From Mobula hypostoma (taxonomy: Eukaryota), in NCBI RefSeq assembly GCF_963921235.1, contig NC_086108.1:42720001-42784000 (forward strand): a stretch of DNA of 64,000 bases. The letters are read 5' to 3'. Both the position numbers and the translations under genes were made by a program. Each line of letters starts with the position of its first letter. Position 1 is the stretch's first letter. The notes under the pieces were generated by a model. That model searched no databases. It saw only the letters and a program-made list of their open reading frames with translations, and was not told where the DNA came from. Shown here one piece after another: positions 2,570-58,900 of the stretch.

Positions 2570-4108
2570 GGGAATAAAGGAAAGCAAATCCCTGCAGCTA
2601 CCGGTGACCCTGTGATCTCTGTCTAGGAGACTGATGTCACAAATCAAGAGGGTTAATCCTCGCAGAGCATCAGGCACTAATGATGCATCTGGTAGGACTC
2701 CGAAAACCTGTGCTAACCAACTGGCGGGAGTGCTCAAGGACATCTTCAATCTCGCACTGCTGCAGTTGGACCATCTCACAGGCTTCAAAAGGGTGACAAT
2801 GATACCAGTGCCCAAGAAGAGCAGGGTGAGATGCCCCAATGACTATCACCCAGATACACTCACATATACTGTGATGAAGTGTTCTGAGAAGTCGTTCATG
2901 GCCAGAATCAACTCCTGCTAAACAAGGACCTAATCCCGCTCCAATTTACCTATTGGTACAATAAGTCTACAGCAAATGCCATCTCACTGGCTCTCCATTT
3001 GGCCTTGGATCATCTGAACACCAGCAATACTCATGTCAGGCTGCTGTTTATTGATTACAACTCAGTGTTCAACACCATCATACCATCAGTCTAATCAATA
3101 AGCTCCACAACCTTGGCCTCTGTACATTGCTTTGCAACTTGATCCTTGACCTCCTTACTGGGAGACATTAGTCAGTGTGGACTAGAAATAACATTTTCTC
3201 CTCGCTGACAACCAACATTGGCACTCTTCAAGGATGCGTGCTTAGCCCACTGCTCTGTTCTGTCTACATCCATGAATATGTGGCTAGGCACATCTCAAGT
3301 GCCATCTATAAATTTGTCAATGACACAATTATTGGCAGAATTTCAGTTGCTGATGAGGAGGTGTACAAGAGTGAGATAGATCAGTTGGCTGAGTGGTGTC
3401 ACAACAACAACCTTGGACTCAACAACAATAGACCAAGGAACTGACTGTGGATTTCAGGAAGGGAATGTCAAGGGAACACACACCATTCCTTATCGAGGAA
3501 TCAGCAGTGGAAAGGGTCAAGTTCCCGGGTGTCAACAGCTCTGAAGATTTATCCTGGGCCTAACATATTGACGCAATTACAAAGGAGGCATAACAGCAGC
3601 TATGTTTCATTAGGACTTTTGAAGAGTCTTGTTATGTCACCAAAGACTCTCCCAAATTACTGCAGATGTACCGTGGAGAGCACTCAAATAGGTTGTATCA
3701 CTGTCTGGTACAGAGGAGCCACTGCATACCAGGGCCATCACGGGTACAATCTTCCCTGCATCGAGGACATTTTCAAAAGGTGATGCCTCGAAAAGGTGGT
3801 ATCCATTATTAAGGGCCCCCATCACCTAGGATACGTCCTTTTCTCATTGCTACCGTAAAGGAGGAGGTGCAGGAGCTTGAAGACACGCACTCAACATTTG
3901 AGGGACAGCTTCTTCTCATCTGCCATCCAACGACCTCATTAATTTTTTAGTGGTCTGCTCCCTTTTTGCACTACTTGTTTAATTTTTTATATATATATAT
4001 ATCTTATTATAATGTATAGTTTTAAAATTATGTATTACATTGTACTGTTGTTGCAAAACAACAAATTTCACAACATATGCCAGTGATATTAAACTTGATT
4101 CTGATTCT
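2570..4108 (+). mobile_element. Rex1/Babar-type LINE, 5'-truncated and decayed
   Basis: CANQLAGVLKDIFN, QGCVLSPLL; (GATTCT) tail; homologous to 59531-61279. Confidence 0.88.
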
Positions 4109-5486
4109 CATTGTTATTCTGGATGCCTTACACTTTTACACAAAAATTGTAAATTTTGTTTTTTTAATTAAGTTATGTGCATATACAAAGTAGAAACAGA
4201 TGGCAAAGAAATCCAACTTTGATGCTCACACTGAACACATGTAAAAGAATCAGCTGCTCCTTGTACCTACCTCCCGCGTGTTTAATTCTATGACGGGATC
4301 GGAGGTGATGAGCTGAGCACTGACTAATACTCCTGCACACATTCAGCAGGTACACTAAAGACCAACATTTCCTTTGCAGAATTTTACATTTGCAAAGATA
4401 CCACTCAGTACATCATGCCTAAATAAGCTTCCTGAAGCAGTTATAGTTAGTCTTTACCCCACAATCTTACAGTTTTTTATGGGTGCAGCAAGTCTGTTCT
4501 TTCCCCCCAAAGCAATTTGCAAACCAGGTTTGGGTACTTGATTTACTCTACATTTAGGAAGTGGTACAAGATTCCATCCTCACCACTGCTCAATGTTACA
4601 CTCAGTAATCTGATTAAACACTCTTTTCTGAATTTACACTTGTTTTGACATCAGTGTAGAATTGAAATCACTCCAAATCCTAAACTTATTAGGAAATGTG
4701 AAGATTGAATTTTAAGGATAATTTTTAGTAAACATATAATCAAAGATATGGATGGCAGTGCATTAGCAGAACTTCTCTCTTCTGTTTTACAGCCTCCAGG
4801 TATAAAGATCAAAGAGCTGCAAACAAGCAAATCTGTGTTTCTCCGCGTTAACTGCAAAGGTGGAGCTCCCTCAAGTTTATATTTAATTATGAAAATAATA
4901 CCCGGTTTTAAGAGCCTACTACCAAAATCGGTCGTTAACAAAGTTACATTTTCAGAGTTGTTCTTTTATCAAGTTTCCCCCATAAACTTAGAGTCTAAAA
5001 ATGCAGTGTGTATGCAAAGTCTGAGTGAAGACCTGGTGGGTCTTGGTATTGCTATCCTTCAGCTCTCAGTAAGATACTTACATTCTCTCTTGAGATTTCA
5101 CATGTGAAAGTGGTTTCTGGGAAGGACAGGATAGTCCAACTAGAGGAAGGGCCGGACTGGACCAAGACTAGCCAGCTGGCTGGCTTTCCAGTGGGAGAGC
5201 AAATTGGAAACAGTGATCACAACTCCCTCAGTTTTAATATAGTTATGAATAAAGATTTGTCTGGAGTTAGGGGGGAGGTATTAAAATTAGGGCAGGACAA
5301 ATGATATCATTATTGGACAGGACCTCAGGAGAGTGAATCAAAAGCATATTTTATTTGTTAAGTCCACAGCTAACATGTGGATGTCACTTAAAGATCAGCT
5401 GATCAGAGTTTAGGACAGTCATGTTCCAGTAAGAAGGAAGGACAAAGTGGTAAGGGCACCTTGGACGATCAAGTCAAGTCACTTTT

Positions 5487-8400
5487 CAGGTCACAGATCT
5501 CTCAGTGGGTGAGCATCTGGGGGACAGTGACCACTGCTCCCTGGCCTTTAGCATTATCATGGAAAAGGACAGAATCAGAGAGGACAGGAAAATTTTTAAT
5601 TGGGGAAGGGCAAATTATGAGGCTATAAGGCTAGAACTTGCAGGTGTGAACTGGGATGATGTTTTTGCAGGGAAATGTACTATGGACATGTGGTCGATGT
5701 TTAGAGATCTCTTGCAGGCTGTTAGGGATAAATTTGTTCCGGTGAGGAAGATAAAGTATGGTAGAGTGAAGGAACCATGGGTGACAAGTGAGGTGGAAAA
5801 TCTAGTCAGGTGAAAGAAGGCAGCATACATGAGGTTTAGGAAGCAAGGATCAGATGGGTCTATTGAGGAATATAGGGAAGCAAGAAAGGAGCTTAAGAAG
5901 GGGCTGAGAAGAGCAAGAAGGGGGCATGAGAAGGCCTTGTCAAGAGGGGTAAAGGAAAACCCCAAGGCATTCTTCAATTATGTGAAGGAAAAAAGGAGTG
6001 AAGGTAGGACTGATTAGAGATAAAGTTGAGAAGATGTGCATGGAGGCTCTGGAAGTGAGCGAGGTCCTCAATAAATACTTCTATAAATATTTTTTATATA
6101 TATTAGTTTCTGGGGGATCATCTATATAACATATATCTTTGGAGTTGCCTCCTGCAGAAATGGGGTTAGAGTTAGTCTTAGTTAGTGCTTTCTTCAGCCT
6201 TCTCTAGCTTAGTTCGGGGGTCTTGGGGTTGGTGGGTGGGGTAGTCTCTTTCTTTTTCAATTTTTTGTATTGGGCTGATTTAGAACTACAAAGATGTCCG
6301 CAGTGTCGAGATTTCCAGTTCCTCTCTGATCATGTATTCCTCTTCCGATTTCATGAGTTTACATTATGGTTAACCCTTTACTTACCAAAGGGTCAATCTC
6401 AAATTATGGTTCGCATTATTAATTTTGTCTCTTGGAATACAAATGGTTTAAACCATCCAATTAAATGGAAAAAGATTTTCAAAGCATTCCAAAGACTGAA
6501 TGCTCATATTATTTTTGCACAAGAAACTCATGTAAGGAAAGAGGATAATCAACGCTTCTTTAAGTTTTGGAAAGAACAACAATACCATTCAAACGCTCAA
6601 GCCAAAATTAAAGGCGTTACAATTTTTATAGATCCCTCAATTACATTTATTCATCAAGACATTAGCTCAGATCCTAATAGCAGATTTTTGTTAATCACTG
6701 GGGTACTTTTTAATAAAAAGGTTGCTATGGTTAATGTTTACGCTCCCAATGTGGATTATCCTGAATTTTTTAAACACCTATTCACTTCCTTTCCTAACTT
6801 AAACGAGTATATGCTGATAATGGGCGGTGATTTTAGCTTATGTTTGAATCCCATGTTGGACAGATCCATAGGTAGTCCGGCTTTACCAAATATGTCGTCT
6901 ACTCTTATTAACTCTTTTATGTTTGATTCTGGGATTTCAGAAATTTGGAGATTTCTACATCCAAACGACAAAGAATTCTCTTTTTTTTCACACGTTCATC
7001 GTTCTTATTCCCGAATTGACTATTTTTTTTATTGACTCTCGATTAATCCCATCTGTAGTTGATTGTAATTATGACATTATTGCCATTTCAGATCATGCTC
7101 CAATGAAACTTTCTATCAAGTTAATGGATACTTCTTTTACTAATAGACAATGGCGATTTAACCCTATTTTACTTCAAGACTCGAACTTTGTCAAGTTTAT
7201 AAAGGATCAGATTGATTTCTTCTTTTCAATTAATACTATGGAAAAAGTTTCCAATGGAACTGTTTGGGACGCTTTTAAAGCTTATATCTGTGGTCAGATT
7301 ATTTCCTATTCGGCTGGTTTGAAAAGACGTGTTAACAATGAAATACTTTTGTTGGTTGATAAAATTAAAGAAATCAATAAAAAATATGCTATTTCTCCCA
7401 GTAAGGAACTATACAAACACAGAGTTGAACTTCAATTGGAACATAGCTTATTATTAACATCCTCGATCGAAAATCAATTAATGAGAACTAGAAGTGATTT
7501 TTATATTCATAGTGATAAATCAGGTAAATTATTGGCTAATCAATTGAAATTTGATTTGGTTAAACGTCAAATTACTGAGATTCATAAACACGATGATACG
7601 TTCACAGTTGATCATGTTGGGATAAACAAAACCCTTCAAGAATTTTACACCTCTCTATATCACTCAGATTTTCCTCATGATTCTAATTTCATGCATGATT
7701 TTTTAGGTAAGTTGAATTTCCCAAAATTATCACCCGAAGATTGTTTATCATTAGAAACTCCCATTACAGAGGGAGAAATAATAACCGCAATCTCATCATT
7801 GAATTCTGGTAAAGCACCCGGTCTGGACAGGTTTACAGTGGAATTTAAAAAATTTTTTTCCTCCATTCTCTCTCCAAGGTTGTCTAGAATATTCAAAGAA
7901 GCAATCAGATTAGGTAAATTACCACAATTGTTTTATGAAGCCTCTATTTCCTTAATCCTTAAAAAGAATAAAGATCCTACTGTTTGTGCATCATACAGAC
8001 CAATATCTCTTTTGAACGTAGATTCAAAAATTTTTTCAAAAATTCTAGCAACCAGGTTTGAGAAGGTATTACCTCAAGTTATATCTATGGATCAAACCAG
8101 ATTTATTAAAAATCGTTATTCATCCTTTAATATTAGGAGGTTAATGAATGTTGTTTATACTCCCTCACTTACTACCCCGGAATGTATTATCTCACTAGAT
8201 GCTGCGAAAGCCTTTGACAGAGTCGAATGGCCTTATTTATTTAATGTTCTTGAGAAATTTAATCTTAGTCTGACATTTATATCTTGGATTAAATTGTTAT
8301 ATTACTCCCCGGAAGCCTCGGTTTGTACTAATAATCATAGATCTCCTTTTTTTCGTCTTTTTCATGGTACTAGACAAGGATGTCCTCTTAGTCCTTTACT

Positions 8401-31126: not shown

Positions 31127-32123
31127 CAACGGTCCCCAACCACCGGGCCGCAAAGCATGTGCTACCGGGCCGTGAGGAAACAATATGAGTCAGCTGCACC
31201 TTTCCTCATTCCCTGTCACGCACCGTTGAACTTGAACATAGGGTTGCCAACTGTCCGGTATTTGCCAGGACATCCCGTACATTGGGCTAAATTGGTTTGT
31301 CCCATACAGGACTGCCCTTGTCCCGTATTTCCCCCGCAAAGGTAGAGCGTTCCTATGAAACCTTTAGTGCCAAAATGGCGTAAAGCAAAGAAGCAATTAC
31401 CATTAATTTATATGGGGAAAACTTTTGAGCGTTCCCAGACCCAAAAAATAACCTACCAAATCATACCAAATAACACAAAAAACTGAAAATAAATAACACT
31501 AACATATAGTAAAAGCAGGAATGATATGATAAATACACAGCTTATATAAAGTAGAAATAATATATGTACAGTATAGTCGGGAAGATTAAGCCAAAACCGA
31601 ATTTATGGGGGAAAAAATCAGCACGTACACGCATGCGCACACCACATATGCACACGTCACGCATGCGCACACAAGTGCCCGCGCAAGGCTTCATGGTCAT
31701 GGTAGCATGAGGGATTCTGTAGATGCTGGAAATTCAAGCAACACACATCAAAGTTGCTTGTGAACGCAGCAGGCCAGGCAGTGTCTCTAGGAAGAGGTAC
31801 AGTCGACGTTTTGGGCCGAAACCCTTCGTCCTGACAAAGGGTCTCAGCCCAAAACGTCGACTGACCCTCTTCCTAGAGATGCTGCGTGGCCTGCTGCATT
31901 CACCAGCAACCTTGATGGTCATGGTAGTCTTTCTCGGGGTAAACACCTCCCGTATTTGACTGCTACTTTTATCCCTTATTTGGGATTGAGAAAGTTGGCA
32001 ACCCTCACTGTAAGAGACATGTTGAGGTGAGTTTAACCCTACTTGAACACCCCCCCCCCAGGTCAGCAAGAATATTGTCAATATTAAACTGGTCTGCAGC
32101 GCAAAAAAGGTTGGGGACACCAG
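31127..32123. mobile_element. Non-autonomous hAT element (MITE-like) carrying a Penelope fold-back insert
   Basis: TIRs caacggtccccaacc / ggttggggacaccag; 8-bp TSD CCTTAAAT (31119-31126, 32124-32131); internal inverted agggttgccaac motif. Confidence 0.85.
31706..31914. mobile_element. Palindromic Penelope-like pseudo-LTR insertion
   Basis: Inverted arms of about 85 bp meeting near 31831; 13-bp TSD ATGGTCATGGTAG (31693-31705, 31915-31927). Confidence 0.82.
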
Positions 32124-39390: not shown

Positions 39391-40679
39391 TGAACTTTGA
39401 AACTATTTCAAAGTTCTCAATAGGATACTTTATTTATAATATATATAATATTCTTCCAACCAGAAATGAAAAAGCACTTAATACTTTGCATATTTAGTGA
39501 GATCCTGGCGACTGATGCAGACTAGCGAGTTTTTGAATATCTGGTTGCAACTTGATCAAAGGTAATCAAAAATCACCTCTTTTCACAACATCAAGATGGT
39601 TATAAGCTTTGGATGGCAGGTGAAGAGTTTGACTAAAACCACATTCAATTACAAAGTTTGTAGACAAGAGGTGGGAAATCCAATTAAAATAACTTTGCTT
39701 TCTCCCAGAGCTGTGGAAACTGATTTGGAATATCACAAGTTATCCAGAAATTTTGTTTGCTGTGTTTTGAATTTTGCTTGAGATGTTATATCACTCTGCA
39801 GCTCAGTAAGACTTTCTTGCAATGTGGTGTCAACATTATTCACATTCTCCCCAAATGGATCCACCACCCAATCTGGAATATGCAACTCCAGTAGGAATCT
39901 GAACCAAAATTCCATATCAGTGTGCAGTTGTTTCAAATGAAATAATTTCCAATTGAGGATCAATAAAGTACTTATTAATATTATACAATCAGATCATCAT
40001 CTTGCAATTCTATTTTAAGAGTGGCCAGTGAAGGAAATTGCATAAACTTGCAACATCCAATATTGCTGCTAAAAAGTTTTGAGTTTTCCAAGGAAAGTGG
40101 TCATAGCCTCTTTCCATGATTTGAGATTGCAGTTTTTTTTCCCTTGTAACTGTCCATTTAATAAATTCAGTTTTTCAAATGTATTTGACAGGTAAAATAT
40201 GTCAGACTTAGCAGTAACAATTTGTTCTCCAAGCTGCTTATCACTTAGAAATGCTGCAATCGTGTCTCAGAATACACCAAAGCGACAAAGACAATTACCT
40301 TTTGATAACCATCAGCCTTCTGTATGCATTAGTAACCCATTCAAAATCTTCTTTGTTTGCTGCCTTCATGTCATGTCAGGTTTCATAAGTCATTGGAAGG
40401 CAAACAGAAGTTTGTGATTTAGGATGGATGTGGAACTGGGCTCAGCGGGCCGCCTTGCAGGGCGTGAACAGTGATTTGTGCGCAGCCAAGCAAGAGCAGA
40501 GATAACCATTGATGTGCAGCACCACAGACACACTCACAGGCCAATCTGTTTCGCTGCCTTATTTGCATCACCTAGCATATTTTTCCATTCATTTCATTCA
40601 AGGTTGCAATTAAATTACATATCTTAATTTTGTTTTATTTTATATATATTAATATTTCATTAAAACAGCAAAAAGAGTT

Positions 40680-44440: not shown

Positions 44441-45720
44441 CTGTGGCCCCCCATTTTCTTGTTTGTTACTTACCATCCTTAGGAAATCCAGCATGGCCTG
44501 AGGCGCAGGGTCAATATGGTCCACGTTGAGAACCACTGGGTTAAGAGATCGGTATAACATCAGCTTCCAAAGGCCTGTACTGTTCTGTGTTCTTTCTAAT
44601 ACAATGAACCGTTCTACAGAAATTTTAATTTCCTGGTATTTGATATGGGACTGCTTATGATTACAAACGTTACTTCGTTGAAGTTTCCCTCGTAATTTAT
44701 TTTGAGGGTTTCCCGGACACGTAATGTTGTAATTATACGTGATGGCCACGAGATGGTGGTTTAGTCCCACTCGAACCAGCAAGAGCACACCAGTTAATCC
44801 TGTACGAATATCAGACCGGAGCGTCCGCCCTGCCGCTGTTCCACGTCAGACGGAGGGTGGATTTGGCGAGACGGCATCTCCCGGGGTTGTGAGTTGTGAC
44901 GCCCGTGGCACAGCAATCAGAGCAGCTGCCTCACAGGCGCTGGGACACGGGCCCAATCCCTGCTTTCCTCCCACCTTCTAAAGGGCCGCCGTAAATTACC
45001 CCGCGTGTAGGTCATGGTAGAATATGGGAATACGGGGGGTGGGGGGGAAGGAAAAGGATGGGATTACAGTGGTACAGGCGTTACAATGTTGATTTTGTAT
45101 AAACTAAAGCCCAAACGTAACGGACTTGGATTTAAGAGGTTCCTCTGTATCACTAATGATTGTCCAGTATAGCACTAGCTTTCAACGTGAGCCAAATGGC
45201 CTCTCAGGGGGGTCATGCCAGATTTTGTAGGGGCAACAAGGAAAAACACAAGAACATTGGGGCCACAGGAGTTTCTGAATGGGCCACGCTAAGTTTCCTG
45301 TTTTAATGAAGCATTACTTAAATATATAAATAAATTAATATGTGCAATTTAGTTGTATCACAATGAAATGAATGGGAAAATATGCTAGATGATGCAAGTG
45401 AGGCAGCAGAACTGCAGAGCCGGTGTGGGGTGGCACATCAATCGTTATCTCTGCTGCTGCTTGGCCACGGAGCCCAGTTCCACATCCACCCCAAATCACA
45501 AAGTGCGGATTGGGAGAGGCTGTCTGCAGCAAGACCGTGCAACGGGAGGCTGGTTCTATCAGCCTTCCACAGACCCGTGCGTGTTTTATTGCTTAAAAAA
45601 AAATGTGACATGAAAGCCGCAAATGAAGAAGACTTTGAACAGCTACTAATGTGTACAGAGGTCTGACGGTTATCAAAAGATAATTGTCTTCCTTGGTTTG
45701 TTGCACTTTGGGCAGTATTT

Positions 45721-46323
45721 TGCCGTACTCGATCGGACCCGATGCAATAGCAATTGTACCACACATACACTGACACACGTAATTCTTTTCAAAACTTTGT
45801 TCTCTACTCATAGCATGCTATGGGGGAAGTGACAGACTGATCTCCCAAAGGAGCCAGTCCGGAGACTGCCCCCGAATTACACAGTTCTCCACAATTTATA
45901 ACACTGATCAGGTAGCAGGAAATCTTACGATTATAAGTTTAGACAATATTAGAATCATTTCAATCACATGCTAAGATACAATTAGATGTAAGGAAATCAT
46001 TGGTCAGTTAGTTATAATTATTTTAAGCCAAAGTTAGCCCATCAGTTCCTCATTCGGACCCTTCCCCTTTTCTCGAACATTCCAGCCCCTACGCTACTCT
46101 TCCCATATTTAGCTTTACCTTGAGCTGCTTCTGCAAGATCAGATAGTTCCGTATTTGAGCCTTTGCCTATCTTTAGACAACAGTGACTAGTACGTCACCG
46201 GCTGCTGGATAAAGCTTCTTTCTAACTTGTCCAAAGCAGTTAGCTACGGCGCTTACAAGGTGATTGATCATCTGTCATTGTCCTCTGTCCCCCCCCCCAT
46301 TTACCCATCCCTTCATTCTATCA
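45721..46323 (-). repeat. ERV 3' LTR
   Basis: TGATAG...GGCA on the minus strand, preceded by the PPT; poly(A) hexamer changed to AACAAA (45796-45801). Confidence 0.93.
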
Positions 46324-46334
46324 TTCCCCCCCTT
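46324..46334 (-). promoter_or_regulatory. Polypurine tract
   Basis: AAGGGGGGGAA immediately 5' of the 3' LTR TG. Confidence 0.88.
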
Positions 46335-46356
46335 ATCATCACTTTATGATAAACAC

Positions 46357-47550
46357 TTAAACAGGAGCCAAATAAAGCATCATCAGGCAGCCAGCATTTA
46401 GGCAGGTCATTATCACACAGCAAGCAACAATTACAACAATGAGAATATCCATCCCTTGCAGCAAATAAACCTCCCATGATCCTCCCTGCAACCATCCTAA
46501 CCAGCCGTCCCTCTTCCCCAAATCTTGCCTGAAATCATCCAATTGTTTCTTAATAGACTGAATGGCATGGGTGATACATTTGTCTCCGACTATTGCGCAC
46601 ACCCCTCCCTGTTGGGCCAACTGATAATCCACAGCATACCTGCTCTGCTGTGCGTAAAGTCGCAACTCCACCAATTCTCTGTTAACAGCTCCAGACCTTC
46701 CATTGAACTGTTCCTCAATGCCGCCAGCCCACAAATGAGGTAGTTGCGGTTCATCGTGGCCACGGTTCCTGCCGCACTCCCTAGAGAGAGAGCGCCCGGG
46801 AACCCGGCTGGAGCTATCAGTCGCCGTTGAACGTGGCAGCCTGGGGGCAGGGAACAGAAAGTGGTCCGATCGTTCCTACTGCAAAGGGGTTAGGCAGAGT
46901 GGTGGTAGCTGTAGTATAGGCGCCATTAAACAATAACACATATCTTCTCTTGGCCCTGTAGCAAGTATTTTTGTAACTCACTATTTTGTCATACCACAAG
47001 TGCTTCTGTAGATATAGGGAGGAGCTTGCAAAAGTCTCTGAACCTGCCGACACACGAGTCCCTTTGCAATATCCACACACATACTGAGTTCCCTTAGAGA
47101 GGGGCACACATAGTTCGCCGATACATTCGCAAGGGAATATTCCCTGGCTTTTCCTACATCGGCTTTCCAGGCAAGGTATCTCCCGGGGTACCCTGGCAAG
47201 GACGCACCCCTCCCCAACTCCCGCAAAACAGAAGGGATAATTCCCAATGCCCGCACCCACATTCTCATCTCCTACTCTCCAAAGACACTTTCCTCTGACC
47301 CCCCTTACATCCTGCCCCTGATCTATCCTCCACTATTGTCATTTTCTGCCCAATTTAGCCCTGATGGGTTAGCAAAAAACAACGCTTCTACAGATTTTAC
47401 CAAAGGATAACATGCAATACAGTTACCATGCAGGCGCATGTGAGCTTTATAAAATACATTGTCCTTCAGGCTTAATGCCACGGGGGCAATCATACCAGCG
47501 AAAAGTCCAATAACAGTCTTTAGTCCACCTGCGGAGCCCATCGTTTGCAA
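46357..47550 (-). pseudogene. env: ERV env (SU with CIAC motif; TM with fusion peptide, immunosuppressive-like domain, CX6C and membrane anchor), frameshifted
   Basis: Signal-like N-terminus, CxxC, GALSLGSAAGTVA, QQSRYAVDYQLAQQGGVCAIVGDKC, hydrophobic ILIVVIVACCVI. Confidence 0.88.
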
Positions 47551-47806
47551 TCACTCAGGTAGATCCAGCGGCTGTGCCCTTGAACCTTAACGGCTGTTGG
47601 TGTTTGTAGGAGTATCTGGAATGGCCCTTTCCACCGGGGTCCAAGCTTGGGACGCTCCCAATCCCGATCAGTACCGAATCTCCAATTCTCAACTCTAGCC
47701 ACTCCTTTTCCTGGCCAGGAATTCTGCAGATGCTGGAAATTCAAGAAACACACATCAAAGTTGCCGGTGAACGCAACAGGCCAGGCAGCATCTCTAGGAA
47801 GAGGTA

Positions 47807-47844
47807 CAGTCGACGTTTCGGGCCGAGACCCTTCGTCAGGACTA
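47807..47844 (-). ncRNA. Minimal type I hammerhead ribozyme (intact core)
   Basis: tagtc-CTGACGA-agggtctcggccc-GAAA-c-GTC-gactg: conserved core, stem II hairpin, palindromic stem III, stem I agtc/gact. Confidence 0.85.
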
Positions 47845-48030
47845 CCTGAAGGAAGAATTAGTAAGATTAGTTCCTTCTCCCTGGGCCTTCTGTCCCATGA
47901 TCCTCTCATATCCCTTTTGCCAATCACCTGTCCAACTCTTGGCTCCATCCCTCCCCCTCCTGTCTTCTCCTATCATTTCGGATCTCCTCCCCCTCCCACT
48001 TTCAAATCTCTTACTAGCTCTTCTTTCAGT

Positions 48031-48068
48031 TAGTTCTGACGAAGGGTCTCGGCCCGAAACGTCGACTG
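48031..48068 (+). ncRNA. Minimal type I hammerhead ribozyme (intact core)
   Basis: tagtt-CTGACGA-agggtctcggccc-GAAA-c-GTC-gactg. Confidence 0.85.
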
Positions 48069-49489
48069 CACCTCTTCCTAGAGATGCTTCCTGGCCTTCA
48101 GGTTCCTTAAGGGTATTAAGAGAGGATGTTAGTTGGCGAAAATAATTCTACAATTCGTCCCCCATAACATTTAGATCAACTTGGGTGGGAGGCTGCATGT
48201 CAGCGTCCCACGGGGTCCTTCCAGGGCGCCCATAAACAATTTCAGCTGCAGATACCCCTGTAGTGGAATGTGGGGTAATTCTCATATGGTATAAAGCCAG
48301 CGGAAGGATCTTCAGCCAACTCAGTCCGGTTTCGGACATTAACTTAGACAGCTTGTTTATCAGGGTGCCGCTGGCCGGTTCCACTATTCCTGCAGCCTTC
48401 GGGTGGTCAGCGCAATGAAACTGCGGTTCGATGCTCAGCACCTCACATAGTTCTTTATTTATATTTCCTACAAAGTGGGGGCCATTATCCGAATTTGTTT
48501 GTCTGGGCAATCTGAATCTCGGTATAATCTCTGTAAGCAACAACTTTACCACCGTAGAAGCTTTATTATTGGTGGTCGGAAAGGCTTCAATCCATTTTCT
48601 GAACACATCTACAATCACTAAACAATACTTATAACATTGTACGCACGGTAGTTCAATAAAATCAAGCTGATTACATTCAAAAGGACCACTTGGCAAGGGG
48701 GGTTTTCCCTGGAGCACACTTTACTCCCTTTCCCGCGTTTGTCTTTTGGCAAATCAAACAGGCTTGGTTTTTTTTTGCTGCAGCAGCCTCCTCCAGTCTG
48801 GGGTGCCATCATGTACGGGGCAAAATATTACTCATTCCCCCCTTGCCAAGGTAGGTGTCCGTATGCAAGCACTCGAGCAACATAGGCAGCAATGCATTAA
48901 GAATACAAACTTGGCCAACTGGGGTATGCCAGAGGCCTGTGGACACCGAATGCGTACATCTGTGTGTCTTCCAAAGTTGTTTTTCTGAATCAGGGGCGTC
49001 CCCCTGAAGCTTTTGAACTGTAGCCCTGTCTGGAGTGCCCGGTCAATCGCCCGGCAGTTAAAACTTTAGAAGTCTCCTCTTGTGCAGCCTGCTTGACTGC
49101 CAAATCGGCCCTGTTATTTCCTTTAGTTACTGCAGATTCGTCTTTTAGACGAGCCGAGTATTTAATAATAGCTCATTTTGCAGGGAGGAGTATGGCCTGT
49201 AGGAGGTTTCGTACGTACATTGCATTCTGGACGGGGGTTCCGGAGGACGTGAGGAACCACCGCCGTGCTCACAGCTGTCCAAAGTCATGGGCCACCCCAA
49301 ATGCGTAACGGGAATCTGTAAATATTGGCCTTGTGGTCCTTGGCTAAAATGCAGGCGCGGGTAAGGGCAAAAGCTCTGCTTTCGGGGCAGAGAGGGTGCC
49401 GTAGTTGTCGACAATCGCGTAGCCGCAGAGGCGTGCCCCTGCCTCGGGGTAATGCAAGGGGACTGGCATGGGACTAAAAATGCCCTGCT

Positions 49490-49973
49490 TGTAGAAGGAC
49501 TCTATGAGGTGGGTTATTCTGTGTGTGTTTCCCAGTATATGGGTTCCCTTAGTTTAGTGTAGTGTTCCGTGTTGTCTGTGTGCCTCAAATAGAATATTGT
49601 TGTTTGTAACAATATCCATATTTTCTCTCAGTTCTCTCAGGGCTGCTCTCTCCTTCCTAGTTAGATTGGGTTTATCCTGTACCTCTCCCGCCCCCCGTTA
49701 TCTCATCCAGTGTGCTCTCAAATTCTAGGATCGCTTCTGACCTGTACCTCCTCTTGGGCATCCAGTCTGAGGGAGGGGTGAAAGAGGTCTTGCTACATTC
49801 TGACTCCCCCCCCAAAAAAAATCGACTAGTACCAATCTCCTATAGAACTTATCCATGCCCCCCTCGATCTGCTCCTTGTGGAACTTTGCAGTCGGTACAA
49901 AAGTGAGGCCCCTGTTACGGGAGAGGTTCACGACGGTCTCTCCCAATCGTGGACCCTGCCTCTCTAGTTTAAA
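49490..49973 (-). pseudogene. N-terminal fragment of a Penelope-like (Neptune-type) RT ORF inside the ERV
   Basis: VVNLS..NRGLTFVPT...FYRRLVLVDFF, NLTRKERAALRELRENMDIV, QQYLFEAHRQ..EHYTKLREPIY across frameshifts; typical of the region preceding the RT core in Penelope-like elements. Confidence 0.75.
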
Positions 49974-50581
49974 GACTGCATCCTCCTCTTGACTATGGTT
50001 AGGGCTGTGTTTTCTGTCCAATGGATGTGGTCTGTGTCTACCCTAAACCGCCGCGCCGGGATTGCAGGGATATAATTCTTAGCTCTAATGACCTCGTTTA
50101 GTTGGCCCAGTGTTGCTTGTTCTGCTTCTGTTAAACTGTGGCTAAAGTTTAACTCTGGCACCCAGATACTGGCATGGGGAAATTTAATACTGGCCATTCT
50201 TAGTAGTTGCTGAAGCTGTTTAGTCGCTGTTGCTGGTTTATGTGACCTGTTGTTTATTCCAAAGGAAAGGATAACCTTCTTAGCTTCTAGCTGTGGCGCT
50301 AACTTTTCCAGGTCAGCAGTAACATGGATGAATTTGGCTCCCGGAAAGCTGTCCAGTTGAACGTCCTTATTAGGGCATCTTTTGATCCTGGAAATGTTAG
50401 AGTCCCCTATAACTAGTATAGGTTTAAGGGGCCTTAGTTCCCAAGTTACATTCTTCTGTTGCGAGTGAGGGTGCCTCGTTATTTGACCCTCCTGACTGTT
50501 GCAAGGGGGGATCCGTTCTGGTGTGGGGTGGGGTGCTGATTCCCCGGAGTCCTTGGTCGGTGAAGCCGTGGGGCTGGCGGG
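49964..50581 (-). CDS. SGNH hydrolase/esterase domain (Neptune Penelope-like ORF1 type) inside the ERV; 205 open codons
   Basis: Manual translation has no stops: ...LKPILVIGDSNISR...DSFPGAK...ILSFGINNR...DTDHIHWT...LN*; SGNH blocks I, II, III and V all present. The ORF track shows only the last 77 aa. Confidence 0.85.
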   Translation of the reverse strand, partial: PASPTASPTKDSGESAPHPTPERIPPCNSQEGQITRHPHSQQKNVTWELRPLKPILVIGDSNISRIKRCPNKDVQLDSFPGAKFIHVTADLEKLAPQLEAKKVILSFGINNRSHKPATATKQLQQLLRMASIKFPHASIWVPELNFSHSLTEAEQATLGQLNEVIRAKNYIPAIPARRFRVDTDHIHWTENTALTIVKRRMQSLN

Positions 50582-51152
50582 CTAGGGTTGAACACGGGCC
50601 ATAGGCATAGGCCGTACCTCCTCCTCCTCAGTCTGATTATCACTAAAGAGCATGGGCAGTCCAGACAGGTCAGGAGGTACCTCAGTTTTACCTTTGCCGG
50701 CTGCATCATCTTTCTTTCGTCTATCCTTAGCCCACCTATCTCTTTTTTTCCCTATCCTGTTATTCCTTATTCTTATCGTGATCCTCACACAATCTTTTTA
50801 ATACCTCCCACGGTTTCGAATTTCCTTCACTGTCACATACCCTAATTTCTCTGCGACGTGCGTTATGCTCCCAGCAATTTTGCTTAGATTTGTTATTTAA
50901 TTCCTCGGCCGTTTTTTTTCTCCAATTGGACATTAAAACCTTCCATTTTTGTCCGGTATTACGCTTCCAAATTGCTTCTTCTGCCTTTAGACAGTTATCT
51001 AAATTCCATGTCCCACCCAGAGGCCAAATTTCACTCCCCAATTTCTTATTTAGGCATGCTGATAACCTTCGGTAATCATTCTCTCTCTGGGTCATCTTTA
51101 CAAAGTTTTAACAATGGCGTGTTATTTACAGATTATCTAATGTTTGCCCCAT
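50582..51152 (-). pseudogene. gag: ERV gag N-terminus (matrix plus charged linker), with frameshifts and stops
   Basis: ATG GGG CAA (MGQ, myristoylation-type start) at 51152; WPLGGTW resembles the matrix WPxxGT motif; lies directly after the leader. Confidence 0.75.
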
Positions 51153-51821: not shown

Positions 51822-51841
51822 CTCCGGGCTGTGGCTCGCCA
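51822..51841 (-). promoter_or_regulatory. Primer-binding site, tRNA-Arg(ACG)-like
   Basis: TGGCGAGCCAcaGCCCGGAG 3 nt after the LTR; matches the complement of the vertebrate tRNA-Arg(ACG) 3' end (TGGCGAGCCAGCCAGGAG) with a 2-nt insertion and one mismatch. Confidence 0.75.
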
Positions 51842-51844
51842 AAT

Positions 51845-52451
51845 TGCCGTACTCGATCGGGCCCGATGCAATAGCAATTGTACCACAAATACACTGACAC
51901 ACGTAATTCTTTTCAAAACTTTATTCTCTACTCATAACATGCTATGGGGGAAGTCACAGACTGATCTCCCAAAGGAGCCAGTCCGGAGACTGCCCCCGAA
52001 TTACACAGTTCTCCGCAATTTATAACACTGATCAGGTAGCAGGAAATCTTACGATTACAAGTTTAGACAATATTAGAATCATTTCAATCACATGCTAAGA
52101 TACAATTAGATGTAAGATAATCATTGGACAGTTAGTTATAATTATTTTAAGCCAAAGTTAGCCCATCAGTTCCTCATTCGGACCCTTCCCCTTTTCTCGA
52201 ACATTCCAGCCCCTACGCTACTCTTCCCATATTTAGCTTTACCTTGAGCTGCTTCTGCAAGATCAGATAGTTCCGTATTTGAGCCTTTGCCTATCTTTAG
52301 ACAACAGTGACTAGTACGTCACCGGCTGCTGGATAAAGCTTCTTTCTAACTTGTCCAAAGCAGTTAGCTACGGCGCTTACAAGGTGATTGATCATCAATT
52401 AATCATTGTCCTCTGTTTCTCCCCCTATTTACCTATCCCTTCATTCTATTA
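51845..52451 (-). repeat. ERV 5' LTR
   Basis: Direct repeat of 45721-46323; minus strand reads TA(mutated TG)...CA; TATAAA at 52019-52024, AATAAA at 51920-51925; followed by the PBS. Confidence 0.93.
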
Positions 52452-53199
52452 ATTGTACCCTCTCTAAGTGATAAGCTGATTGGAGAACAATTGTCACTGC
52501 CTAGTCTGACTTATTTAACCTGTCAGATTTATCTTAAAAACTTAATTTATTAAACAGTTACAAAGAAAAAACTGTGATTGTATGTTGTGCAAGAAGCTAT
52601 TACGGCCTTCCTTGGAAAATTCAATATTAGACGTCAGGAGTTTATGCAATTTCCTTCACTGGCTACTCTTAAAATAGAATTGCAAGATGATGATCTGATT
52701 GTATAACAATAAGTACTTTATTGATCCTGAGTTGGAAGTTATTTCATTTGAAACAACTCCATACTGATATGGAATTTGGGGTCAGATACGTGCTGGAAAT
52801 ACATATTCCAGATTGGGTGGTGGATCCATTTGGGGTGAATATGAACAATGTTGACACCACATTGCAGGAAAGTCTTATTAAGCTGCAGAATGATATAACA
52901 GCTCAAGCAAAATTTCTGGATAACTTGTGATATTAAAAAAAAGTTTCCACAGCTTTGGGAGGAAGCAAAGTTGTTATAATTGGATTTCCCACCACTTACC
53001 TAGTTGAATGCGTCTTTAGTCAAACGCTACATTCTATCAAAAGCTCGTAACTGTCTTGACGTCGTAAAAAGAGGTCATCTTCGATTATCATTGACCAAAT
53101 TGTAACCAGATAATGAAAACTTACTAGTTTGCTACGGTGAAAAGCATCTAATACCCAATATTAAGTGCTTTTTCGTTGTTGGTTGGAAGAATATTAAAT

Positions 53200-53328
53200 G
53201 ACTAATTTGCTAGCTTGATACTCAACCCAGCACAGATGGAAAGCGTGCAAGGAAGGAGCCAGCCAGATTCGAACCCGGGACCACTAATCTCAAAGTCCAG
53301 TGTGGGTGCCACTACACCTCCAACCAGC
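53200..53328 (-). mobile_element. Short tRNA-derived SINE within hAT copy 2
   Basis: Minus strand GGTGTAGTGG (A-box-like) and GGTTCGAATC (B box). Confidence 0.6.
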
Positions 53329-53660
53329 TATATAAATTATAAATAAACTATCCCATTCAAAGCTTTGAAAGGTTTTATTTTTCATATATACCTGTAAAAT
53401 TATATTTAACATATAATAGTATATATAACATTAAAACAAATTGACTATATATCAGAATAATTAGTACAGTTGACAAAAAAAACTTTAGCAGCTGATGGAA
53501 ACTGTGGAAGGTAGGGTCCACAGAGGTAAATGAAAGTCACAAGTGGGCCACAAGCAGAAGGTTGAGAGACACTGCAGTACAGGACTCTGCTGAATCCAGA
53601 AACATCCTTTGATCCTTCAAGTAGCCAAAGTTTACCTTGCTGTTACTAATTGTGTCCTCT

Positions 53661-53694: not shown

Positions 53695-54365
53695 CACCCC
53701 CCCCCCACCCTTCCCTCCCCTTCCACCGCATCATTAGGTAACTCATTTGCCATTGTGGTATATACAGGTATGCAGTGATTCCCACAACAGATGCCCCTGT
53801 AATCTATTCCAGTCAAGTCAACTGTTGTTAGCATAACAATCATAGAGTCACGTAACCCAGAAATTGACTATTTGGCCCACTGAATTATACCAGCCATCAA
53901 TCACCCATTTATACCTCCCATTTAATTCACACCCCCCCCATTTCCACCAACTCTCCCTCCCCAGATTCTCCCACTCCTTGGAGGCAGTTTACTGTGGCAC
54001 AAAGTCCACATGTCTTTTGGAGAGTAAAGACAAAATTGACTTTATTAAGCAGTAAACTGAACGGATAAGGAAGATTTCACAATTTATTTGTATGTCGTCA
54101 TGCAGTGAAATGTCTGCCCATTAAAGGAGGCTAATATTAGTTCTGCTAATTGAATCCAACCATCATTTGCTGAGAGTCAGTTCTGGGAGAAGATGGGTGG
54201 AGGCAGTTGTAGTGTTAATGCTGACATGAATAGGGCTGGCCACATGGCCTTCCCTCTCAATGTTTTATTCAACATCTAATCTACATCGAGCTGTAACTTT
54301 AAACAATCTTCCTCATTATCTGTACATCACCAACTTTTGTGTCATCTGCAAACTTAGTAATTATA

Positions 54366-55971
54366 CAGTGGTATGCAAAAGTTTGGGCACCCCGGTCAAA
54401 ATTTCTGTTACTGTGAATAACTAAGTGAGTAAAAGATGAACTGATTTCCAAAAGGCATAAAGTTAAAGATGACACATTTCTTTAATATTTTAAGCAAGAA
54501 AACTTTTTTATTTCCATCCTTTACAGCTCCAAAATAACAGAAAAGGAAAAGGGTCCAAAGCAAAAGTTTGGGCACCCTGCATGGCAGTATTTAGTAACAC
54601 CCCGTTTTTGTAGCCAGCTAAGAGTCTTTCAATTCTTGTTTGGGGGATTTTCGCCCATTCTTCCTTGCAAAAAGCTTCTAGTTCTGTGAGATTCTTGGGC
54701 CGTCTTGCAAAAGCCCTCTTTTGAGGTCTATCTACAGATTCTCAATGATGTTTAGGTCAGGACTGTGAGGGCCATGGCAAAACCTTCAGCTTGCGCCTCT
54801 TGAGGTAGTCGATCATGGATTTTGAGGTGTGCTTAGGGTCATTATCCTGTTGTTGAAGCCATCCTCTTTTCATCTTCGGCTTTTTTACAGATGGTGTGAT
54901 GTTTGCTTCCAGAATTTGCTGGTACTTAATTGAATTCATTCTTCCCTCTACCAGTGCAATGTTCCCCGTGCCACTAGCTGCAACACAAGCCCAAAGCATG
55001 ATCGATCCACCCCCGTGCTTAACAGTTGGAGAGGAGTTCTTTTCATGAAATTCCGCACCCTTTTTTCTCCAGACATATCTTTCCTCATTGTGACCAAAAA
55101 GTTCTATTCAAAAAGTTCAAAGAAACATCTAAACAAGCCTGATGCACTTTGGAAACAAGTCCTGTGCACTGATGAAGTTAAAATAGAACTTTTTGGCCGC
55201 AATGAGCAAAGGTATGTTTGAAGAAAAAAGGGTGCAGAATTTCATGAAAAGAACTGCTCTCCAACTGCTAAGCACAGGAGTGGATCGATCATGCTTGGGC
55301 TTGTGTTGCAGCCAGTGGCACAGGGAACATTTACTGGTAGAGGGAAGAATGAATTCAATTAAATACCAGCAAATACCAGTAACAGCAAATTTTGGAAGCA
55401 AACATCACACCATCTGTAAAAAAGCCAAAGATGAAAAGAGGATGGCTTCAACAACAGGAAAATGACCCTAAGCATACCTCAAAATCCACGATGGACTACC
55501 TCAAGAGGCGCAAGCTGAAGGTTTTGCCATGGCCCTCACAGTCCCCCAACCTAAACATCATTGAGAATCTGTGGATAGACCTCAAAAGAGCAGTGCATGC
55601 AAGACGGGCCAAGAATCTCACAGAACTGGAAGCCTTTTGTAAGGAAGAATGGGAGAAAATCCCCCAAACAAGAATTGAAAGACTCTTAGCTGGCTACAGA
55701 AAGCGTTTACAAGCTGTGATACTTGCCAAAGGGGGTGTTACTAAGTACTGACCATGCAGGGTGCCCAAACTTTGGCTTTAGATCCTTTTCCTTTTTTGTT
55801 ATTTTGAAACTGCAAAAGATGGAAATAAAAAATTAATCTTTCTTAAAATATTAAAGAAATGTGTTATCCCTAACTTTATGCCTTTTGGAAATCAGTTCAT
55901 CTTTTACTCACTTAGTTATTCACAGTAACAGAAATTTTGACCAGGGGTGCCCAAACTTTTGCATGCCACTG
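54366..55971. mobile_element. Tc1-family fold-back derivative made of two inverted 3' halves
   Basis: TA TSDs, TIRs cagtggtatgcaaaagtttgggcaccc with internal direct repeats; the same transposase catalytic segment (QQDNDPKH...WPSQS) on both strands. Confidence 0.92.
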
Positions 55972-58900
55972 TACCTCCTATTTTCACACCTGGGTTGTTA
56001 ATATCACACACAAAGGTCCCAGCTCTAATCTCTGGAGTATACTACAGGTCATATATTTCTAATCTAAAAGCAGCTTTCTACCACTCTGCCTCCCATCACA
56101 CCGCCAATTTTGGATCCATCTAGCCAGCTCACCCTGGACATCGTGTGACGTAACCTTCTGGACCAGCCTACCATGCAGCTTACTATTTTGGACTTTGTCA
56201 ATTGCCTTATTAAAGTCCACATTGGCAATATCTATTGCCTTGACTTCTTCAGTTTTTCAAGTTACCTCCTCAAAAGACTCAGTCAAGTTAAGGAGACGAG
56301 CTATGCTGACCATTTGAATGTACATCTACCTTTGTCCTTTATTTTTATTGGATCATGCTGGCCCTGAACTCTTACTAACTCTCTTTTAAAAGTCCTTGCT
56401 TGATGGATGTTGTTTCCCAGCAACTATCTGCTTCCAATTCACTTTCACCAGAACTTTACTTATGCTATCCAAATCAGCATTCTCCACATTCAAGGCTTTA
56501 ACTTGAGGACCAACACATTCCCTTTCCATAACTACTTTGAAACTTACAGACTTCTGTAACATTGTTCTCAAAGCCTTCCTCCAATGGCACCTCCACCACC
56601 TGCCCAGTTTAATTTCCTATGATAAAGTTGAGCATTGCCCTTAGTCTCTAATGGGAACCTTTATATATTGTCTCATTGTCTCTTGGATGCATCTCATGAA
56701 TTCTGTCCCATCCACGTCTCTTACACCAAGGCAATCCTGATCCCAGCCAATAATGGGAAAGGAAAACCCCTCATTACCATAACCCTATTACTCTCACACT
56801 TTTCTGCGATATACTTACATATCTGTTCCTCTCTTTTCCACTGACAATTGGAGGCATGCAGAATAACTCCAGAAAAGTAATCGCCCATCTTATTTCTAAA
56901 TTTTTATCCATATGACCACACCGGATAATCCCTCCAGGATATCTTCTTTACGTACCGCTGTGATGTTCTCCCTCATTGGGCGATTCCCCTCCTCTTTCGC
57001 ATTCCCCTCTGTCACATTTGAAACTTCTACACACCAAAACATTAAAGCCCCAGCACAGCCCTTCGCTCAAGCACACTTCTATCATTATAGTAACATCGTA
57101 ATTTTGCAGATTCATCCTCTAGCCTGACTTGGCTCGCCCATGAGGCTTCTTGCATTAAAATAAATGCAGGTCCTCCAGGGTAGTAATCTCTGGATTGCTG
57201 CCTGTGCCACATGCCAGTGTCGGTAAAAATAGGATGATTTGGTAATGAATGTGGGGCTAAGGAATTGGTGCAGGGAGGCAGAGTTTCAAATTTCTGAACC
57301 ATTGGGATCTCTTCTGAGGAAGGTATGACCTGTACAAAAACAGACAGGCTACACCCGAAACCAGAGGAGCACCAATAAATATCCTTGCAGGCAAGTGTGT
57401 TAGAGCTGTAGAGGAGGGTTTAAACTAATTTAGCAGAAGGTTGGGGCAGATGGTGTACAAGTAGATGCATTGTGTAGTGAGACTCTTGAGGAAGAACAGG
57501 CAGATGATAGGGCAAAATTTCTGTAAGTGGGATGAGTTAAAGTCTAAAAGGAGGCCAAAGTTGAAAAGGGTGATGAATACAGGACTAAAGCTGTTTTTAA
57601 AAAAAAATACGCAGTATACAGAATAAGGTAGATGGTCTTGTAGCACAGTTAAGAGATTGGCAGGTATGACATTGTGGGCATCACTGAGTCATGGCTGTAA
57701 GAAGATCATAGCTTAACATCCAAGGGCACACATTGCATTGAGAGGACAGGCAGGAAGGCACAGGGGGATGGGGTGACTCTGTTGTTGCAAAATGAAATCA
57801 AATCCTGAGAAAGAGATGACATATAAGATTGGAAGATGTAGAATCCTTGAGAGTAGAGTTAAGAAACTGCAAGTTTATGAAGACCATGATGGGAGTTATG
57901 TACAGGCCTGCGAACAGCAGTCAGGATGTGGGCTACAAATGTCAATGGGAGATAGAAAAGGCTTGTAAAAAGGGTGATGTGCAAGAGTCATGGGAGATTT
58001 CTATATGCAAGTGGATTGGGAAAATCAGATTGGTGCTGGATTCCAAGAGAGGCAATTTGTATAAAGCTTACGAGATGGTTTTTGGAACAGCTTGTGGTTC
58101 AGCCCACACGAAACGGCAATTCTGGATTGAGTGTTGCGCAACTAACCAGATTTGATTCAGGAACTTAAGGTAAAGGAACCCTTAGGAAGCAGTGATCTAA
58201 TATGATAGAGTTCACCCTGCAGTTTGAGAGTGTGAAGATGAAACCAAATCAATCTGTCTTACAATGGAATACAAGGGAGTTACAGAGGTATGAGAGAATC
58301 GCAGGCCGAGGTTGATCAGAAAACGCAGGATAGATACATTCCAGAGATGAAAAGTATGCTAATGCGAGGATGAGGCAACCATGGCTGACAATGGAAGTCA
58401 AAAACAGCATAAATAGAGGGCATATAATAGAGCAAAACTTAGTGGGAAGTTAGAGGATTGGGAAGCTTTTAAAAACCAACAGAACAAAACTAAAAAAAGC
58501 CAAAAGGAGAGAAAAGATGATATTTAAAGATAAGGTAGCCAAAAAATTAAAAGAGGGTATCAAAAGATTTTTCAAATATATAAAGAACAAAAGAAAGGCA
58601 AGAGTGGATATCGTACCGTTAGAAAATGACACTGGAAAAGTAGTAATGAGGTGCAAAGAAATGATTGATAAACCTAATAAGTATTTTGCCTCAGTCTTCA
58701 CAGTAGAAGACACTAGCAGTATGCCAGAAATTCGAGAGTGTTGAGGGGGGCACAGAAGTAACTGTCGTTGTTATTATTAAGGAGATAGTGCTTGGGAATC
58801 TGGTAGGTAAATCACCTGGATCAATTGCACTACATCTCAGGGTTCCGAAAGAGGTAGCAGATGAAATTGTGACGGCATTAGTAATGATCTTTCAAGAATC

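Follow-up and report, generated by a model that had tools for sequence, protein, structure and literature searches.

Two proviruses in Mobula hypostoma carry the SGNH esterase region of a resident Penelope-like element

In this work, we analyzed a stretch of 64,000 nucleotides of Mobula hypostoma DNA (hereafter the window) and found a minus-strand provirus in which part of gag and pol is replaced by a piece of a putative Neptune-type Penelope-like element encoding an SGNH esterase. A second provirus of the same genome, L021, carries the same piece at an unrelated site. The best explanation, to which we assign a probability of about 0.7, is a single capture that produced an in-frame Gag-esterase, spread with the aid of helpers and left these two descendants. 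Both proviruses are now dead, and neither can make the fusion today. The parts of the window provirus are listed below in viral order.

51845..52451, minus strand: 5' LTR; the target duplication in front of it has 4 nt, of which three match on the 3' side
51824..51841, minus strand: PBS-like 18-mer adjoining the 5' LTR, recognized from sequence
50588..51152, minus strand: 5' part of gag (matrix and charged linker), with frameshifts near 51132, 51088, and 50749
50579..50587, minus strand: 9-nt microhomology junction between gag and Penelope ORF1, containing the stop 50584-50582
49517..50587, minus strand: Neptune-type Penelope-like piece of 1.07 kb (end of ORF1 and start of ORF2)
49964..50581, minus strand: 205-codon open frame of ORF1 linker and SGNH domain, with all four catalytic blocks
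50507..50527, minus strand: junction of a 111-nt in-frame deletion common only to this copy and its sister provirus
50431-49967, minus strand: SGNH esterase domain, inside the 205-codon frame
49967..49973, minus strand: slippery heptamer of the -1 frameshift type where ORF1 meets ORF2, a feature that comes from the donor
49517..49963, minus strand: N-terminus of Penelope ORF2, with shared deletions of 18 nt (49965) and 36 nt (49916) and other breaks
49444..49517, minus strand: 74-nt remnant of the retroviral RT N-terminus, between two deletion junctions
48116..49445, minus strand: frameshifted remnant of RNase H and integrase
47716..48097, minus strand: unrelated repeat, a later insertion with a short direct duplication on either side
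46324..47715, minus strand: integrase end, putative env remnant (labeled from translation only), and polypurine tract
45721..46323, minus strand: 3' LTR

The recipient has a class I-type layout, LTR-gag-pol-env-LTR with a PBS-like site, a polypurine tract, and a short TSD, and its two LTRs are separated by a K2P distance of 0.029. The RT of one family copy, L034, matched MLV-type RT with an E-value of 1e-56, foamy-type RT with 4e-34, and Ty3 with 1e-24. The family appears to be class I-like (gamma- or epsilon-like), a placement above genus level, with an RT closest to gammaretroviral ones. Pfam and PDB sequence searches for a Gag_p30 capsid in this family gave no match, and the Gag P30 clusters, with an Atlas feature score of 0.94 and recognition below its threshold, are a lead only. 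The preliminary description had gag starting normally. In the window copy, the frameshifts near 51132 and 51088 bring stops at codons 9 and 15, and a further break that it placed near 50760 is present near 50749-50750.

Several observations concern the surroundings of this provirus. The insertion of approximately 380 nt at the integrase end (47716-48097) has inverted arms (47778-47866 and 48009-48097), which we take to look like a minimal hammerhead motif; it is absent from L021, and related copies lie at 31710-31917. The DNA flanking the provirus (52622-53559 and 45362-45710) matches a repeat of the window at 39406-40598 in inverted orientation. Since both flanks match this one repeat, the provirus integrated into an older repeat. 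The window also contains a 1.6-kb element (54364-55973) that consists almost entirely of inverted repeats and has a TACAGTG-type end, presumably a Tc1-like fold-back DNA transposon.

For comparison within the family, we fetched 19 of the 24 listed gag-matching loci of the genome, and the foreign piece was absent from 18 of them. Shared internal deletions were found in at least 13 of these 18 copies, five with one large gag-pol deletion and eight with another, and two non-autonomous deletion subfamilies dominate the family. The first subfamily (L023, L026, L029, L036, and L037) lacks 2165-5993 in L034 coordinates; the second (L027, L028, L032, L033, L035, L038, L039, and L040) lacks 3096-4501 and mostly also 5651-5946. 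Both have kept env. Because such shared deletions are common, movement in trans, with dependence on helpers, is the norm of this family. The protease region is held only by L025, L031, and L034 among the fetched copies. L031 and L034 are near-identical (97%) proviruses of the full-length type, and the LTR pair of each differs by approximately 12%. Either an old insertion was duplicated, or the LTRs are recombinant.

The foreign DNA (50587-49517) matches a repeat family of the same 3.48-Gb genome at about 92% identity. In this donor family, a long ORF1 ends in the esterase, and ORF2 encodes RT and GIY-YIG domains. One young, nearly intact copy, L044, has a 718-aa frame in which RVT_1 and GIY-YIG both score above the cut-off (718 open codons at L044:1132-3285, minus strand). 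Translations contain a CX2-5CxxC linker motif before the endonuclease, which both Neptune and Nematis elements have according to PMC8557442. The combination of RT, C-terminal GIY-YIG, and Cys motif supports a Neptune-type donor, as the preliminary description had proposed, judging from sequence features. ORF1 ends in a slippery heptamer and a stop in 18 of 20 copies, and ORF1 frameshifts in Penelope-like elements are already published (PMC8557442). A stem-loop 3' of the slippery site was not convincing (z from -0.7 to -2.4). Of the 15 long free donor matches, 12 are no more than 200 kb away from the start or end of a contig, and one is near telomeric repeats. The donor also forms tandem arrays near contig ends despite its GIY-YIG endonuclease (L051/L041/L042 at C5:1-28000, L043-L044, and L047), and the C5 array adjoins telomeric repeats.

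The captured open frame runs from 50581 to 49967 with its stop at 49966-49964, and contains GDSN (50407-50396), FPGA (50347-50336), GINN (50260-50249), and DHIH (50032-50021), all where the preliminary description had read them. Because the foreign DNA begins at 50587, the proline-rich stretch that precedes the esterase belongs to Penelope ORF1 and not to gag. SGNH Blocks I, II, III, and V (Ser, Gly, Asn, and Asp-x-x-His) are present and at least 90% conserved in both 76-row alignments. The domain matched Pfam Lipase_GDSL_2 with E-values of 7e-6 to 1.4e-5 and 26-27 bits, so the profile hit that had been anticipated exists, but at 26.1 bits (E 1.4e-5) it stays below the curated cut-off of 32.9. 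An AlphaFold model from the 76-row alignment has a pLDDT of 97 and matches PAF-acetylhydrolase (E 3.6e-8) and the ZfL2-1 ORF1p esterase (PDB 4c1b; E 1.6e-5). The modeled domain is thereby confirmed as an SGNH hydrolase fold with intact catalytic motifs, and its enzyme activity is a prediction. The PDB sequence search missed the SGNH domain, and the best 50 matches in the viral fold library were phage and giant-virus hydrolases, with no retrovirus among them. The esterase has 1082 relatives at E<=0.001; in the best 150 it is C-terminal, mostly in proteins of 500-900 aa, and no Gag Pfam domain was found in these 150. Two relatives also have a NADAR domain (E 3e-21). Word-based database queries for other Gag-SGNH fusions returned one and three matches, which is weak evidence of absence.

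The second chimera, L021/L022 on contig C75, is the single fetched copy with the foreign piece. It is a provirus of 7862 nt with its own LTRs (pair distance 0.033), and its flanks are unrelated to those of the window copy, apart from one 70% repeat match. A 26-nt proviral leader unit is repeated there in approximately 20 tandem copies (L021:9305-9841). Deletions of 111, 18, and 36 nt are present in both proviruses and in none of nine aligned free Penelope copies. Across the 3.48 Gb, exact matches to the 111-nt and 36-nt junction patterns are confined to the two proviruses, and eight matches with two mismatches are unrelated DNA. The free copies have one private deletion of at least 10 nt in nine rows; as deletions are this rare among them, the 111-, 18-, and 36-nt deletions probably arose during viral copying. 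Splicing was rejected as the source of the 111-nt deletion and of a 99-nt deletion, whose ends, read in one free copy, are not GT..AG. A second provirus with the same piece and the same deletions indicates that the capture predates integration and that the chimera was copied in trans, to at least two chromosomal sites. Two copies were found, and the genome DNA searches scored 40 candidates each. The preliminary description had proposed movement in trans and had named a piece unique to this locus, with normal gag-pol in other members, as the contrary outcome. The chimera is indeed not the norm of the family, but it is not confined to one locus.

Three further proposals, that an insertion unique to the window locus took place after integration, that the chimera is an assembly artefact, and that the two loci are a segmental duplication, are ruled out by the sister provirus, by a read contig that spans the junction, and by the unrelated flanks, respectively. 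This 155-nt contig (run X1, which may be the source sample) crosses the 5' junction without a difference. Runs X5, X10, and X13, from other organisms, cover both parent families, and no bridge over a chimeric junction was among the pieces listed. No RNA data set was among the listed holders of the sequence.

The two proviruses differ in how the foreign piece is joined. In L021, gag passes in frame into the foreign ORF1 at the capsid region, so the gag and esterase frames are in register as had been suggested. Relative to L021, the window junction is an 814-nt deletion. The extra 814 nt of L021 comprise the rest of the gag linker, a p30-capsid-like stretch, and 141 nt more of Penelope ORF1, and the 9-nt word stands at both of their ends, the mark of a copy-choice deletion. 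The stop 50584-50582, correctly read in the preliminary description as followed by an open frame, is private to the window copy and not a conserved family feature. The fusion of matrix, linker, and SGNH proposed there holds as an in-frame Gag-ORF1 join, but the direct join of MA to the esterase exists in the window copy only and probably arose later, by deletion, from a more extended join in which Gag, from MA to capsid, was followed by ORF1 and SGNH. On the 3' side, the junction had been placed near 49485; it lies at 49517, with a deletion junction internal to pol at 49444. Here, more of the Penelope sequence is left in the window copy, and pol resumes at a site retained only by full-length family members. 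L021 rejoins pol further on, carries the subfamily RNase H deletion that is absent from the window copy, and has its closest pol relatives 3' of the junction in deletion-subfamily copies (95%). The viral/foreign junctions sit in microhomologies, and in their present state none of the three 3' junctions is in frame. An open ORF2-pol frame was rejected: compensating indels exist, but there are stops inside them.

As first described, the foreign DNA has the orientation of the virus, stands in place of viral sequence, and has no TSD. Non-viral sequence in sense orientation, in place of viral genes and at more than one integration site, is a feature of transducing retroviruses. In the proposed history, transduction would have replaced approximately 1.5 kb of the retrovirus (the C-terminal part of capsid, nucleocapsid, protease, and the start of RT) with the end of ORF1, including the SGNH esterase, and the start of ORF2 of the resident element, presumably through RT template switching. 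This would have made one reading frame of Gag and the esterase, much as in the Gag-onc fusions that transducing retroviruses carry, and the replication-incompetent product may have been packaged and reverse-transcribed by helper family members. Further deletions were probably gained en route, several at microhomologies. One lineage may have swapped its 3' half with the deletion subfamily in a later crossover with a co-packaged subfamily RNA. Two descendants would then have integrated, L021 and the window copy, the latter minus 814 nt more. That as much DNA was gained as was lost (about 1517 nt either way, with L002 and L034) is a coincidence, as the donor interval is 1471-1626 in seven copies.

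An unlikely alternative departs from this history in the first step only: a Penelope element could have inserted in sense into provirus DNA, and later copying could have deleted its ends, its TSD, and the neighboring viral genes. The window provirus did receive a later insertion (48097-47716, with its short duplication) and the family is prone to large deletions, but on this course each end of the insertion must have been removed by a deletion running across it, two in all, and no intermediate with Penelope termini inside the retrovirus was seen among the 19 fetched copies.

We give little credence to two independent captures from a lost Penelope sub-lineage that already carried the in-frame deletions, in which case the kept frames and the excess of synonymous changes would stem from selection on the transposon and not on the virus. 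Such a sub-lineage would fit the four large deletions in the captured piece, which are all multiples of three, two of them downstream of the esterase stop, and the junction pairs that differ between the proviruses on both sides. The captured-piece tree, with only three sites shared and rare in free copies, leaves the sisterhood of the two pieces unresolved. Against it, no free copy in the assembly has the 111- or 36-nt deletion junction, the gag tree joins the two proviruses as sisters (92/80, support below the starred threshold), and the 36-nt deletion cuts what we take to be a conserved motif of Penelope RT N-termini. L021 is also the nearest env relative of the window copy (94%); the integrase tree does not resolve their relationship. 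We infer a single origin of the capture, the viral/foreign junctions themselves being different on both sides.

Similarly improbable is ectopic gene conversion or unequal exchange between integrated proviruses, with no RNA stage. Only two copies were found and mosaic 3' halves can also form at the DNA level, but the captured pieces differ by 6.5%, approximately twice the LTR distances within the proviruses (0.029-0.033), which indicates a split before either integrated. The LTRs lead to the same order: they differ by 0.064-0.093 between the proviruses, more than within either, so the two split before integrating.

Four rearrangements affect the Gag-esterase frame (the capture junction, the 99-nt and 111-nt deletions, and the window junction), and all four keep it, which is expected by chance in about 1 of 81 cases. 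Private changes in the window esterase are 8 synonymous and 9 non-synonymous (ratio 0.31), compared with 1 and 16 in the window gag and integrase (Fisher p=0.017). Against the free copies (28 to 83), dN/dS is 0.31 vs. 0.81, lower as selection would have it but with p=0.08; pooling both proviruses gives p=0.095, and the ratios were 0.32 and 0.46 in an initial set of smaller size. The preliminary description had suggested that the openness of the esterase may reflect selection. This is rejected as proof, because, at the rate seen in viral coding DNA (nine frameshifting indels per 2826 nt), none would be expected in 615 nt with P=0.14 (after removal of four alignment-edge events of 13; 0.06 with all 13), and the esterase of L021 has three frameshifting indels and a stop. 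The chimeric lineage, moreover, is known from two copies only. Past the esterase stop, the 18-nt and 36-nt deletions common to both proviruses are divisible by three as well, and two of the three family-wide deletions keep the frame although their products have no protease or RT. Premature stops can destabilise unspliced retroviral RNA. With multiple-of-three deletions outside the esterase too, the frame may have been kept for the sake of a stable RNA and not of the enzyme. Selection on the esterase beyond frame keeping is suggestive only and not significant.

It is a tentative idea, which we hold to be improbable on balance, that the chimeric lineage produced a working Gag-esterase fusion during a period of spread, with putative targeting of the lipid-binding SGNH domain by Gag to membranes or to particles mixed with helper Gag, an aid to assembly, release, or entry, and selection that preserved the frame across the four rearrangements and favored synonymous changes in the esterase. 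The myristoylation proposed in the preliminary description is putative: Gly2 is present in 14 of the 15 gag starts listed, and residue 6 is Asp or His; the myristoylation consensus has Ser/Thr at residue 6. Our conclusion is a retroviral transduction of a transposon gene, replicated in two proviruses, in which a role for the enzyme is possible. If the fusion was functional, a retrovirus would have had an esterase as an accessory gene, and ORF exchange between retroelement classes would be directly evident.

Acutely transforming gag-onc viruses resemble these proviruses in that foreign sequence replaces a viral domain, and they are defective and few in copies. Retroviral capture of host mRNAs with loss of viral genes is known (PMC4299795; PMC6431247), and in crocodilians CrocERV31 captured nectin3 and CrocERV29 captured KIT-ligand (PMC4299795). 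As presented there, these also have foreign coding sequence in place of a viral domain and form a defective lineage with few copies; they differ in their host mRNA cargo and in purifying selection (p<0.01), whereas our cargo is a retroelement ORF1 and selection is not significant. The bdelloid Vesta LTR retrotransposons have a GDSL/SGNH ORF3 shared with Athena Penelope-like elements, for which RT template switches were proposed (PMC5408684). They are alike in being LTR elements whose SGNH domain has its relative in a Penelope-like element. In Vesta, the families have gag and pol, and the domain forms an ORF3 of its own; here it is joined to Gag in frame, has taken the place of core genes, and resides in a vertebrate retrovirus. 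The genome still contains the donor, at about 92% identity, and the junctions can be mapped.

Among non-LTR elements, the ORF1p esterases of ZfL2-1 and of CR1/L2, RTEX, and Penelope-like elements share the fold and catalytic blocks of the captured domain; the captured domain is a family separate from the ZfL2-1 esterase, with 18% identity. Neptune-type elements share the donor's RT, C-terminal GIY-YIG, upstream Cys motif, and ORF1 joined by frameshift (PMC8557442), whereas the provirus holds a fragment only, which lacks the RT core, the endonuclease, and a pseudo-LTR. In the literature searched, mostly the main texts of open-access papers, an SGNH domain was not found in any vertebrate retrovirus. 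[quoted passage not shown] If the in-frame pattern reflects selection, it would bear on the role of ORF1 esterases, here grafted onto the very Gag to which they were compared. Earlier cases of SGNH sharing among retroelements are old. Here, donor, recipient, and two recombinants occur in one genome at about 92% identity, and hence one can read both the junctions and the order in which the events took place. A vertebrate endogenous retrovirus can take up and propagate the ORF1 of another retroelement; the process, transduction, is a known one, the pairing of cargo and recipient is new, and the case is unusually well resolved.
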